Assembly: GCF_000027125.1 (NCBI RefSeq) | Contig: NC_017626.1 | DNA from: Escherichia coli 042 | Lineage (GTDB): Bacteria; Pseudomonadota; Gammaproteobacteria; Enterobacterales; Enterobacteriaceae | Strand: one strand, 5' to 3' | Length of the DNA: 64,000 nucleotides | Shown here: positions 7,807 to 12,929 of the stretch, piece by piece | Layout: each line of letters begins with the position of its first letter | How positions within the stretch are numbered: position 1 is the stretch's first letter | The notes under the pieces: generated by a model | Told to the model about the DNA's origin: nothing | The model's database searches: none | Seen by the model: the letters and a program-made list of their open reading frames with translations, nothing else | Position numbers and translations under genes: made by a program

Positions 7807-8766
7807 ATGACCGAATCAACAACCTCCTCCCCGCATGATGCGGTGTTTAAAACCTTTATGTTCACACCCGAAACCGCTCGGGATTTTCTGGAAATACATC
7901 TACCAGAGCCGCTGCGCAAGCTTTGCAACCTGCAAACTTTACGCCTGGAACCCACCAGCTTTATTGAAAAAAGTTTACGCGCTTACTACTCGGATGTTTT
8001 GTGGTCTGTGGAAACCAGCGACGGTGAAGGCTATATCTACTGCGTGATTGAACATCAAAGCTCTGCAGAAAAGAATATGGCTTTTCGGCTAATGCGCTAT
8101 GCCACTGCCGCCATGCAGCGTCACCTGGATAAAGGCTATGACAGAGTTCCGCTGGTGGTGCCATTGCTGTTTTATCATGGCGAAACCTCGCCCTACCCGT
8201 ACTCACTCAACTGGCTGGATGAGTTTGACGATCCGCAACTTGCCCGGCAGTTGTACACCGAAGCTTTTCCGTTGGTGGATATCACCATCGTACCTGACGA
8301 TGAGATCATGCAACATCGGCGTATAGCTCTGCTGGAACTGATTCAAAAGCATATTCGCGACCGCGATTTAATCGGTATGGTCGACAGGATCACCACGCTT
8401 TTGGTTAGAGGCTTCACTAATGACAGCCAGCTACAAACGCTGTTTAATTATCTGCTGCAATGCGGCGATACCTCCCGTTTCACCCGCTTTATTCAGGAGA
8501 TTGCCGAACGTTCACCACTACAAAAGGAGAGATTAATGACTATTGCTGAACGGCTGCGGCAGGAAGGACATCAAATTGGCTGGCAGGAAGGTAAAATTGA
8601 AGGTTGGCAGGAGGGGAAATTGGAGGGGTTGCAGAAAGGCAAAGTAGAAGGTATGCATGAACAAGCCATTAAAATTGCCTTGCGCATGCTGGAACAGGGC
8701 TTTGAACGTGAGATTGTGCTGGCGACAACCCAACTCACTGATGCTGATATTCCGAACGGTCATTAA
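7807..8766 (+). CDS. yfaD: Rpn-family recombination-promoting nuclease (PD-(D/E)XK, transposase_31-like)
   Basis: 319-aa ORF with the conserved N-terminal HDAVFK motif and a repetitive EGK-rich C-terminal module. Confidence 0.85.
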
Positions 8767-8980
8767 AAGGAGAGATTAATGACTATTGCTGAACGGCTAC
8801 GGCAGGAAGGACATCAAATTGGCTGGCAGGAGGGTAAATTAGAAGGTTTGCAGGAAGGCATGCATGAACAAGCCATTAAAATTGCTTTGCGCATGCTGGA
8901 ACAGGGCATTGATCGTGACCTGGTGCTCGCGGCCACCCAGCTAAGCGAAGCCGATCTGGCAGCGAATAACCACTAATTAA
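8522..8980 (+). repeat. tandem direct duplication (about 215-245 bp units) spanning the yfaD 3' end and ypaA
   Basis: Copy 1 (about 8522-8764) and copy 2 (about 8765-8980) both begin AAAAGGAGAGATTAATGACTATTGCTGAACGGCT. Copy 1 carries an extra internal [16 protein letters not shown] sub-repeat. Confidence 0.85.
8779..8976 (+). CDS. ypaA: small protein duplicating the Rpn C-terminal domain
   Basis: 65-aa ORF preceded by AAGGAG 7 nt upstream of the ATG; near-identical to the last 76 codons of yfaD. Confidence 0.7.
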   Translation: MTIAERLRQEGHQIGWQEGKLEGLQEGMHEQAIKIALRMLEQGIDRDLVLAATQLSEADLAANNH

Positions 8981-9836: not shown

Positions 9837-11078
9837 TTAATGATGTGCCACGTCGGTCTGCGCAACAGTGCGATTTACACGCAGAGTGAAAATAATCAGC
9901 GAACCGATGACCGCCACCGCTGCCAGCGTCAGTAATCCCGCCGCATCGCTGGCAAACAACGTTTCTGCTTTCACGCGCAGGATCGGGGCAATAAACCCAC
10001 CCACTGCACCAAACAGGTTTACAAAACCAATCCCCGCCGCCAGCGCCGTACCGGAAAGCAGTTGTGTCGGCATCGTCCAGAACACCGGCTGCACGGCAAT
10101 AAACCCGATGGCTGCAACACACAGCGCTACGATCGCCAGTACTGGAGAAAGCAGCCCGGAGAGACCAATACCAATGCCTGCCGCCAGTAATGTCAGCGCC
10201 GCGACATTACGCCGTTCGCCGGTTTTATCGGAATAGCGCGGAATAAGCCAGGTCCCAAACAAGGCCGCGACCCACGGAATGGCGGTGACCACCGACGCCG
10301 TAAAGCCCACTTTTGTCCCCAACAATGCAGCAACCTGCGTCGGCAGGAAGAAAATTAATCCGTAAACCGCCACCTGAATGGTCAGGTAGATAATCGCCAG
10401 TTGCCAGACTCGCCCATTACGCAGCGCATCGCTCAGTCGAGAAGTCACTTTCTGTTGTTCTTCACTTGCCAGTTGGTTGATAAGCAACGTTTTTTCTTCT
10501 TTACTCAGAAAACGTGCCTGCTCCGGCGTGTCATCAAGCCAAAAGAATGTGAATACCCCAGCGCCGACTGCCAGCAATCCTTCAATCACAAACATCCAGA
10601 ACCAGCCGGGATGCCCCATAAATCCATGCATCTCCAGCAGCGCGCCGGAAAGCGGTGATCCCAGTGTTAACGCCAACGGTGCGCCCATATAGAACAGCCC
10701 CATAATGCTGGCGCGATTACGCTGCGGAAACCATTGCGAGGTGAGATAAATCATACCAGGGAAGAACCCGGCCTCCGCAGCACCAAGCAGAGTGCGAACG
10801 ATCAGAAATTTCGCTTCAGTATCGGCCCATGCCATGGCTGCCGAAAGAAATCCCCACAGCAGTGTTGTCGTACCAATCCAGGTTCTGGCCCCCAGTTTGC
10901 GCATCAAAAGATTCGCCGGAACACCCAGAAACGCATATACCACAAAGAAAATGCCTGCTCCCAGCGCATAAGCTTCATTACTCAGCCCGGTATCAATCTG
11001 GTAGGTTTGTTTGGCAAAACCGATATTCGAACGGTCGAGAAACGCCAGCACATACAGCGCCAACTTGACATCCTCCAC
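9837..11078 (-). CDS. rhmT: L-rhamnonate MFS transporter, N-terminally altered or truncated by the adjacent IS
   Basis: 413-aa ORF with an MFS fold recognised as RhmT/YfaV. Its only available start is a GTG at 11076-11078, inside the IS terminal hairpin; native RhmT is recalled as about 429 aa. Confidence 0.7.
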
Positions 11079-11094
11079 GCCCTGAAGAACGTGG
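11073..11094 (+). repeat. IS terminal imperfect palindrome (tnpB-proximal end)
   Basis: TCCACG-CCCTGAAGAA-CGTGGA, 14 bp beyond the tnpB stop. Confidence 0.55.
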
Positions 11095-11107
11095 ATCCCT
11101 GCTACGT

Positions 11108-12316
11108 TCAGGCTGTCGCCTGAATCATTTCGGTGGGTTCCTGCTTCAACGAGCGGCCTGACTGCACCATCTCTCCACAGGCAAGAACGGCGTGCCCCGC
11201 CGCTAAAATGTTACGAGCGCCATTTACATCGGCGTTCGCTGTATATCCACATACCTGGCATCTGAATTGACTTTGTGACAGGCGATTTTCTTTCGCAGTA
11301 TGACCACAGCACGCGCAACGCTGGCTTGTGTACGCTGGCGGAACAGCAAGCAACTGACCGCCACTCCAGAGCTGCTTGTACTCAAGCTGGCGGCGCATTT
11401 CATACCAGCCCTGATCCAGTATCGAACGGTTTAAACCTGATTTTGCCCGGACATTGCGCCCCGGCTGGCTGAGCGTACCCGCTGCTGACTTTGACATGTT
11501 GCTGACCTTCAAATCCTCAATGACTATCATTGCGTGGTTTTTGCTGACGGTCGTTGTGACTTTGTGAAGGTAGTCCCTGCGGATATTTGCGATACGGGAA
11601 TGCAGTCGCTGTATTTTGCGTTTCTGCTTCTGCCAGTTGTTGCTGAATTTGACCCTGCGGCTTAACTGTCGCTGAAGTCTCGCCAGCTTCTTCTGGTTTT
11701 TCTGAAAACTGTTTACAGGCTCAAAGACTGTGCCATCTGACAGCGTGGCGAGTTTAGCCACGCCAGCATCCAGCCCGACCATTGATGCTGAAGGGTGAAC
11801 CGGAGTTGATACTTCACTTTCTGTCTGAATACTGATGTACCACTTACCGCAGGACTGGCTGACAGTGACATTTTTTACAACACCCGTGACCTGACGGCTG
11901 TTCCGGTAGCGCATCCAGCCCAGTTTCGGCAGAAAAATACGGCTGTTTTCCTGATCGAGCTTAACGCCCTGCGGATAGCGGAATGCATCATTCTGTCCCC
12001 GCTTTTTGAATCGGGGAAAAGCAGCCCGATTCTGGAAGAAGTTTTTGTAAGCCCGCTCAAGGTCTTTCAGTGACTGTTGCAATGGCTGTGAGGGCGAATC
12101 TTTAAGCCATTGCGTTTCAGTGGCGTTTTTCCACTCAACCAGCCAGGAAGCCATTTTCCCGTAAGGGATGTATTTATTACCGGCCTCATGATTCTCATTC
12201 TGAAGCGCCAGAGCGCGATTGAAAACGAAACGACATGCGCCTGCGAAGCGCCTCATTTCACACTCCTGTTGACCACCTGGTCTTAACTGGAATTTAAATG
12301 CCTGTAATCGTTTCAC
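11108..12316 (-). CDS. tnpB: TnpB (OrfB) RuvC-like RNA-guided nuclease of the IS200/IS605 family
   Basis: 402 aa with RuvC-I GLDAGV, RuvC-II IVIEDL, Ruv[12 protein letters not shown] and a zinc finger CACCGH...CQVCG. Confidence 0.9.
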
Positions 12317-12323
12317 AGGTCAA

Positions 12324-12929
12324 ATGATACTTTGGTCTATGAAAAAAGAAACCGATATCCGGCGTGGAAGGCATTGTGTTTTCCTGATGCATGTTCACCT
12401 GGTCTTTGTCACCAAATACCGACGCCAGATTTTTGACCATGACGCGACAGAAAAACTACGCACTTACTTTTCAAATGTATGTGCTGATTTTGAAGCTGAA
12501 CTGGTTGAAATGGATGGCGAACCAGATCACGTCCATTTGTTAATTAACTATCCTCCCAAACTGGCGATATCCAGTCTGGTAAACAGCCTCAAAGGCGTAT
12601 CGGGTAGGTTACTGCGACGAGATCGACCAGATATTGCAGTCAGGTATTACTACAAAGGCGTTTTGTGGAGTCCTGGCTATTTTGCCAGTAGCTGCGGAGG
12701 TGCGCCAATATCCGTCATCCGCCAATACATTGAACAACAGCAAACACCTGGTCAGGTGGAAAACCGCGCCTTATATCCCCGCCCTGAAGGACGGGGTTTT
12801 ACAGCGCACTGGATAAAGTCATGGACTCAACAACCTCAATCCAGCCATGCTCACTGGCGATGTCCTGGCCGTTTAACCAACGGCGCAGCATATTCAGTGC
12901 CATCATTGCGCACACTTCCTGACGGATAG
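12324..12929 (+). CDS. tnpA: IS200-type Y1 (HUH) transposase TnpA; annotated ORF is abnormally long at the 3' end
   Basis: HUH motif HVHLL and the C-terminal WSPGYFASSCGGAPISVIRQYIEQ motif. The ORF reads past the terminal hairpin into the yfaY-antisense flank (201 aa against a typical 140-155 aa). Confidence 0.75.
   Translation: MILWSMKKETDIRRGRHCVFLMHVHLVFVTKYRRQIFDHDATEKLRTYFSNVCADFEAELVEMDGEPDHVHLLINYPPKLAISSLVNSLKGVSGRLLRRDRPDIAVRYYYKGVLWSPGYFASSCGGAPISVIRQYIEQQQTPGQVENRALYPRPEGRGFTAHWIKSWTQQPQSSHAHWRCPGRLTNGAAYSVPSLRTLPDG
12777..12796 (+). repeat. IS terminal imperfect palindrome (tnpA-proximal end)
   Basis: CCCCG-CCCTGAAGGA-CGGGG, sharing the GCCCTGAAG loop with the hairpin at 11073-11094. 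Confidence 0.55.

Follow-up and report, generated by a model that had tools for sequence, protein, structure and literature searches.

A probable omega RNA with an rhmT-derived guide at the right end of an IS609 copy in Escherichia coli 042

The window analysed here, a stretch of 64,000 nucleotides from Escherichia coli 042 (contig NC_017626.1), carries the genes rpnE, yfaU (rhmA), yfaV (rhmT), tnpB/tnpA, yfaY, yfaZ and nudI in this order. E. coli K-12 has the same neighbourhood with rhmD and yfaX (rhmR) between yfaV and yfaY, and the transposon is absent there. In the window, tnpB and tnpA belong to a complete copy of IS609, an element of the IS200/IS605 family. The last 150 bases of this copy (11065-11214, minus strand) are very probably the scaffold of an omega RNA, with the approximately 16 bases that follow (11064-11049, nucleotides 63-78 of rhmT) serving as the guide for the TnpB protein. 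The features of the copy are given below (LE, left end; RE, right end; TAM, transposon-adjacent motif).

11065-12812, minus (the top, active strand of the element is the minus strand of the window): complete IS609 copy, IS200/IS605 family, 1,748 bp; from the alignment of nine copies with flanks
11108-12316, minus: tnpB (insQ-type), 402 residues, intact; NF040570 and alignment with ISDra2
12339-12929, plus: tnpA (Y1 HUH transposase), divergent from tnpB; NF033573, model positions 2-126 of 126, 146.9 bits against a cut-off of 55
11065-11214, minus: probable omega (right-end) RNA scaffold, about 150 nt, four covarying stems; covariance model R1 and covariation
11187-11203, minus: stem 1, GCGGCG-GGGCA-CGCCGU, five of six pairs changing on both sides
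11140-11181, minus: stem 2, a RAGATH-18-like hairpin with outer arms CCUGU/GCAGG and inner arms GAG-UGGU/GCCG-CUC
11098-11133, minus: stem 3, which contains the tnpB stop codon UGA (11110-11108)
11074-11095, minus: RE subterminal hairpin UCCACGUU-CUUCAG-GGCGUGGA, stem 4 of the RNA and predicted single-stranded DNA site of TnpA
11065-11073, minus: RE terminal nonamer GGAUGUCAA, from identical ends in E. coli copies and other genera
11049-11064, minus: predicted 16-nt guide GUUGGCGCUGUAUGUG, nucleotides 63-78 of rhmT, from the first non-element base onwards and identical to K-12 rhmT
12777-12796, minus: LE subterminal hairpin CCCCGUCC-UUCA-GGGCGGGG, present in all copies, a weak match to R1
12813-12817, minus: TAM and TnpA target TTTAT (core TTAT), the native 3′ end of yfaY abutting LE

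The ends of the element were mapped on nine E. coli copies with their flanks, taken from eight distinct sites and read on the tnpB-sense strand (minus in the window). All nine finish at the 3′ side with ...GGCGTGGAGGATGTCAA, past which their flanks are wholly divergent, and all nine begin with CC(A/G)GTGCGC(T/C)G...AAAACCCCGTCCTTCAGGGCGGGG, directly preceded by YTTAT (TTTAT or CTTAT). On the window the alignment range of the other E. coli copies is 11065-12817, the shared TAM included. No target duplication is seen at the flanks of the nine sampled copies, TTAT being present on the LE side only. The copy thus combines a Y1 HUH transposase with subterminal hairpins rather than inverted repeats and with insertion 3′ of a short target, as expected of the IS200/IS605 family. 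Its identity to the K-12 insQ/tnpA element beside ydcO, which we take to be IS609 of that family, is 97.9% over the whole element. The K-12 element has the same divergent tnpA/tnpB layout, both subterminal hairpins, the GGATGTCAA end and a TTTAT flank (locus L005); it differs in its insertion site, and therefore in its guide, and in an internal stop in tnpA that the window copy lacks. The window copy also has substitutions of its own relative to the other E. coli copies, e.g. CCAGTGCGCTG in LE and CGTTC on the loop side of RE. Matches to the element occur in 5,424 of 5,426 complete E. coli genomes, at a median of four places per genome, and bases 11000-12900 of the window are 100% identical to E. 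coli 118UI (NZ_CP032515).

A protein homologue search gave at least 120 matches, the 120 listed being all 80-100% identical and, where named, from Escherichia. These are too similar for covariation, so sequence diversity was drawn from a scan of genome contigs (one genome per species), which gave 52 related loci. In 29 of the 52, similarity to the window breaks off at the base corresponding to 11065, and all 29 have unrelated flanks. Among the genera represented are Citrobacter, Serratia, Pantoea, Xenorhabdus, Photorhabdus, Morganella, Klebsiella, Arsenophonus and Janthinobacterium, and further loci come from metagenome-assembled genomes (MAGs) of Methylococcaceae and Zetaproteobacteria. The end sequence GGATGTCAA is found in the nine E. 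coli copies and in 28 of these 29 loci from other genera, the exception (L062) having GGATTTTAA; the arms of the RE hairpin vary among the other genera, with variants such as CCAUGUCC/GGACAUGG and CCCCUUCC/GGGAGGGG. By analogy with IS608, the RE cleavage is placed after TCAA (UCAA in RNA letters). An earlier first-pass annotation, made from the sequence without database searches, had described a terminal palindrome at 11073-11094. The palindrome exists, displaced by one base (11074-11095), but it is subterminal: the element runs nine nucleotides further, to 11065.

Since the element ends at 11065, the guide starts at 11064. The right junction in the window reads ...GGATGTCAA followed by GTTGGCGCTGTATGTG..., and the corresponding stretch of K-12 rhmT is ...ATT CCG TTT ATG TTG GCG CTG TAT GTG..., i.e. 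ccgTTTAT followed by GTTGGCGCTGTATGTG. The right flank therefore begins at nucleotide 63 of rhmT, a point immediately preceded by a native TTTAT in K-12, and nucleotides 1-62 of the gene (20 codons and two bases) are absent. The length of 16 nt for the guide is adopted by analogy with ISDra2. Wild-type rhmT has TTTAT right before the guide-matching sequence, so the guide has a TAM-flanked target. The first-pass annotation had expected a guide from the start, or 5′ flank, of rhmT; the next 16 nt beyond the element are indeed rhmT, but they lie inside the gene and not at its start. The alignment of copies that it had proposed for finding the element end puts the boundary at 11065 and leaves the guide in rhmT.

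At the other end, yfaY of K-12 finishes ...ATGACCTTAT followed by CTGTCTGA, and the window has ...ATGACTTTAT followed by CCAGTGCG.... Genomes free of the insertion sequence that have exactly GACTTTATCTGTCTGA exist, so the TTTAT at yfaY is native. Both the rhmT and the yfaY flanks in the window match the K-12 sequences. The YTTAT of the E. coli copies is replaced by TTAT, TTAC or TGAC in relatives, and among relatives L012-L063 the final TAM base mostly changes together with the one immediately preceding the LE hairpin on its 5′ side: ...AAAA goes with TTAT, ...AAAG with TTAC and ...CAAG with TGAC, the exception being L012 (AAAA with TTTAC). This pattern would fit the transposon-directed target recognition of IS608, which was reportedly described by Barabas and colleagues in 2008.

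The scaffold overlaps the last 107 nt of tnpB, including its stop codon, and runs to the RE end at 11065. As expected of an omega RNA, it stops at the element boundary, and the adjoining bases are unrelated between copies. Its structure was derived from two alignments. In the first (A1; 28 sequences, 200 nt upstream of the right end), RNAalifold predicts 39 pairs, of which 18 have changes on both sides, against 5-10 for slid partners; 95.8% of the pair cells are paired, against 36-52% when the partners are slid by one to three columns, and none of 500 shuffles reaches any of these measures. The second (A2; 23 sequences, 150 nt, 38 pairs in a structure written by hand) leaves out the window, every sequence from an Escherichia genome and any sequence whose identity to the window exceeds 90%, which removed the Citrobacter copy L013. 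It gives changes on both sides in 19 of the 38 pairs and 93.0% of cells paired, against 42-55% with slid partners, again with 0 of 500 shuffles as good. A covariance model (R1) built from A2, and hence from non-Escherichia loci, was run on the whole window. It has one strong match, at 11214-11065 on the minus strand, over all of its 150 positions (166.5 bits, E = 9e-51); apart from a weak echo at the LE hairpin, it has no other match below E = 1. The covariance-model search at the tnpB 3′ end that the first-pass annotation had proposed thus returns a structured RNA. Its placement of the omega RNA at 11040-11110 was right as to strand and as to the presence of a conserved, covarying scaffold; the extent was too short, since two thirds of the scaffold lie upstream and that interval contains just its last 46 nt and the guide. 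Neither finding that it had named as telling against its proposal, the lack of a structured RNA or transcript at the tnpB 3′ end or an element end that leaves no guide in rhmT, was obtained, and apart from the coordinates and the wording on rhmT its prediction of an omega RNA and guide is supported.

The covariation is spread over all four stems. The closing pair of stem 1 is AU in 15 and GC in 11 sequences of A1, through paired synonymous codon changes inside tnpB. Inner pairs of stem 2 vary as GC:15/AU:7 and GC:17/AU:4. In stem 3, pair 111:147 is GC in 12 and AU in nine sequences, and pair 112:146 is CG in eight, UG in eight and UA in three; a G:A position in the same stem (columns 115:144), which does not pair in 12 of the 22 sequences scored, was dropped from the model. 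Stem 4, the RE hairpin, has changes on both sides in four of its eight pairs. A long-range helix proposed by RNAalifold between GAUGU (11230-11226) and AUGUC (11071-11067) has one-sided changes only, without covariation, and was left out of the model. The loop of stem 1 (GRCA) and the UGUC before the guide are a candidate pseudoknot, both sides of which are nearly invariant.

R1 also recovers the module at the 3′ end of more distant relatives, save for a few truncated or fragmentary loci. Three remnants that have lost almost all of tnpB (L063 1410-1639, L058 1448-1677 and L060 1419-1648; hosts Arsenophonus, Photorhabdus and a gammaproteobacterial MAG) retain the full 150-nt scaffold. In L063 an LE-like hairpin adjoins it, an arrangement resembling palindrome-associated or miniature inverted-repeat transposable elements (PATE/MITE), and stem 1 is compensated. 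These remnants suggest that the 5′ limit of the scaffold lies near window position 11214. The paired synonymous changes in stem 1 and the retention of the scaffold by remnants without tnpB argue for constraint at the level of RNA, beyond that of coding or of TnpA binding. In a group of relatives from Photorhabdus and Klebsiella pneumoniae (L029, L031-L034, L036, L043 and L055), the nucleotide alignment to the window ends earlier, at the base equal to 11136; R1 still matches them at full length (98-106 bits) with about ten extra bases, and the 3′ third of their scaffold appears to be a variant form.

Comparison with Rfam, using a permissive E-value, gave three matches in this region.

11181-11138, minus: RAGATH-18 (RF03064), 29.5 bits against a gathering score of 44.9, E = 0.007
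11175-11052, minus: HgcC (RF00062), 20.1 bits against a gathering score of 50, E = 0.09
11235-11074, minus: sot0042 (RF02656), 14 bits against a gathering score of 88, E = 1.3

RNAs of the sot0042 and RAGATH-18 families are located at tnpB 3′ ends or derived from them, and HgcC has the RE-like hairpin motif of such RNAs (PMC4615843, PMC11061315). The HgcC consensus shares the RE hairpin and GGAGGAgGUCA with the IS609 RNA, and RAGATH-18 shares the CCUGUGGAG...GAAGCAGGAA hairpin. The three families originate from archaeal IS1341-type and from IS607-type elements (HgcC being archaeal and RAGATH-18 IS607-type). Because the scores are below threshold and the element types are others, we regard the IS609 RNA as a relative, and not a member, of these families. 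No Rfam family thus captures an IS609-type RNA at threshold, and R1 finds this class of RNA across Enterobacterales and beyond.

The TnpB protein scores 388.4 bits against the guided_TnpB model NF040570 (cut-off 100) and 310 bits, below the cut-off of 425, against the narrower model NF038281. Residues 3-376 align with the TnpB of ISDra2 (8bf8, E = 8e-55). The complete RuvC triad and zinc finger noted in the first-pass annotation are confirmed, D183, E267 and D363 and C334/C337...C353/C356 being aligned with the ISDra2 motifs, and NCBI annotates IS609 TnpB as an RNA-guided endonuclease. TnpA has the HUH motif (HVH) and a catalytic-type tyrosine in VIRQYIEQQ. Wherever tnpA is open, no stop codon interrupts its frame within the element, and the frame continues across the LE hairpin and the TAM into the flank, which is why RefSeq marks tnpA as partial in every copy. 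All nine sampled E. coli copies have the full 402-residue frame of tnpB, and five of them have a stop or frameshift that breaks tnpA.

We propose that an RNA from the tnpB-sense strand, most likely cut from a tnpB transcript that continues into rhmT, would be bound by the 402-residue TnpB, and that this complex, to judge from ISDra2 and the Geobacillus elements, would cleave DNA in which TTAT or TTTAT is followed by GTTGGCGCTGTATGTG. Two targets exist in principle. One is the donor joint that TnpA would create on excision, yfaY-TTTAT joined to GTTGGCG (yfaY...GACTTTAT followed by GTTGGCGCTG); the other is any wild-type rhmT allele. As has been shown for related elements, such a cut would force repair from a sister copy in which the element is still present, and the element would thereby be retained. 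Transcription and processing in strain 042, the length of the guide, TnpB binding, cleavage and the retention effect are what we infer by analogy for this copy.

Another close known system is ISDra2 TnpB of Deinococcus radiodurans (PDB: 8bf8, 8exa, 8h1j). Homology between the two proteins extends along their full length, and their RuvC and zinc-finger motifs align; in both elements the RNA overlaps the 3′ end of tnpB and reaches RE, and the flank supplies the guide, the likeness of the RNAs being one of position. The TAM is TTGAT in ISDra2 and TTAT/TTTAT in the window, where tnpA is divergent and TnpB has a 15-residue insertion after the catalytic glutamate. The same 5′-TTTAT TAM is used by ISGst2 TnpB2 of Geobacillus stearothermophilus (Meers et al., PMC10055086). 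In Geobacillus, excision by TnpA leaves a scarless donor joint that is cut by TnpB with its omega RNA, favouring retention of the transposon (PMC10055086). ISGst2 is a distant element in another host, and its activity has been demonstrated, whereas that of the window copy is a prediction. An enterobacterial relative is the TnpB of PMC12781874. The ends of its element were matched to ISfinder IS609, and a TTAT TAM and a predicted omega RNA were employed with it; the protein, a metagenomic ortholog and not that of E. coli, was assayed for trans-cleavage only and not taken forward. IS609, its TnpB, the TTAT TAM and the omega-RNA principle have all been published, so the finding is not new, either in kind or in family. 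The same holds for the programmable nuclease with a guide fixed by its insertion site that the first-pass annotation envisaged, which is the established description of TnpB elements. The practical products here are an exact map of this copy (ends, TAM, 150-nt four-stem scaffold and guide), the covariance model R1 and the observation that tnpA decays in copies whose tnpB and RNA remain intact.

Several observations weigh against an omega RNA that works as proposed. No Rfam family reaches its gathering score on the scaffold, even with the permissive E-value, and neither IS605-orfB-I nor IS605-orfB-II matches. The fold of the single sequence is unexceptional (z = -1.78; 13 of 200 shuffles fold as well) and uninformative alone, so the comparative data were relied on. 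The RE hairpin also serves TnpA on DNA, and part of its conservation is thus not specific to RNA. A promoter scan of the minus strand finds nothing sigma-70-like close to the 5′ end of the scaffold, so the origin of the RNA is argued by analogy; likewise a terminator scan finds none after the guide. The sole RNA evidence is the published E. coli K-12 RNA-seq, in which transcripts overlap the tnpB 3′ end (PMC4615843). Some natural TnpBs are inactive when assayed, e.g. HpyTnpB of IS608 (PMC10055086), and the IS609-type TnpB of PMC12781874 was not the active enzyme chosen there.

The strongest alternative accepts the scaffold and guide as described and holds that this copy, or IS609 of E. coli generally, is functionally silent, a vertically inherited relic in which TnpB or its RNA is too scarce or the protein does not cleave. 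The missing promoter-like site and the inactive IS608 enzyme speak for it; the identical junction in 189 of 5,426 genomes indicates an insertion fixed in a lineage, and the broken tnpA of five of nine copies implies that much of the family is no longer mobile. Yet tnpB keeps its full frame in all nine copies despite the decay of tnpA and the compensatory changes in the RNA are kept across genera, from which continued selection on the TnpB-RNA pair is argued, and tnpB 3′-end transcripts have been reported in K-12. We consider silence a real but clearly less probable outcome than an RNA that guides TnpB.

Conservation of 11098-11214 might instead reflect the coding of the TnpB C-terminus together with DNA signals for TnpA, and no RNA. 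Of the 150 nt, 107 are coding, the single-sequence fold is unremarkable, and the RE hairpin and terminal nonamer are substrates of TnpA in the IS200/IS605 family, as in IS608. However, TnpA of this family needs just the hairpin and a few flanking bases, whereas the stems are kept by paired synonymous changes and extend past the stop codon into non-coding sequence, and the remnants L058, L060 and L063 keep the full 150 nt with a compensated stem 1 where tnpB has gone. Coding and DNA signals are therefore already disfavoured as the whole explanation, and we give them very little credence. Equally improbable is that TnpB and its RNA form chiefly a DNA-binding regulator of the TldR kind, which might control read-through into rhmT or tnpA, and not a nuclease. 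Some TnpB derivatives are indeed RNA-guided repressors (PMC10705468), and tnpB transcription runs straight into the truncated rhmT frame, but TldRs have lost RuvC residues and have short guides, whereas the window protein has D183, E267, D363 and the zinc finger, and no TAM-flanked match to the guide is evident beyond the donor joint and wild-type rhmT.

The insertion is accompanied by a deletion. Between window positions 11064 and 12813 the element stands in place of 2,348 bp of the K-12 arrangement (K-12 locus L002, 4092-6439), comprising yfaX/rhmR, rhmD and the first 62 nt of rhmT. The deletion is bounded exactly by native TTTAT motifs, at the 3′ end of yfaY on one side and at codons 20-21 of rhmT on the other, and the resulting rhmT junction is the one common to the 189 genomes. 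The junctions of a single insertion are found in none of the 5,426 genomes, neither rhmT-TTTAT joined to LE (rhmT...CCGTTTAT followed by CCGGTGCGCC) nor RE joined to the sequence downstream of yfaY (GGATGTCAA followed by CTGTCTGATTCC). Recombination between two copies in the same orientation, with unsampled intermediates, is one possible route to the deletion; the junction searches lend it no direct support. That the deletion was made by the enzymes of the element rather than by such recombination seems to us unlikely. TnpA bound to LE would in that case exchange strands between its own TTAT-LE junction and another TTAT lying upstream of it on that strand, producing an adjacent deletion. We know of no description of adjacent deletion mediated by an IS200/IS605 element, and if the enzymes did make it, this would be a new way for such elements to remodel genomes. 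As a by-product of the deletion, the guide of the copy now matches wild-type rhmT alleles; if the proposed function is true, the locus could cut incoming DNA that would restore the rhamnonate genes.

RE is open in the rhmT frame. RefSeq starts a chimeric yfaV at a CTG overlapping the tnpB stop (window 11109-11111); a GTG at 11078 opens a 413-residue frame (9837-11078), the first residues of which, MEDVK, come from RE save for the last base of the lysine codon. Transcription of tnpB would read directly into this truncated transporter gene. Elsewhere in the window (7807-8976), a short duplicate of its C-terminal part comes after rpnE (ypaA in K-12); the K-12 arrangement is the same, and the fragment is unrelated to the omega RNA.

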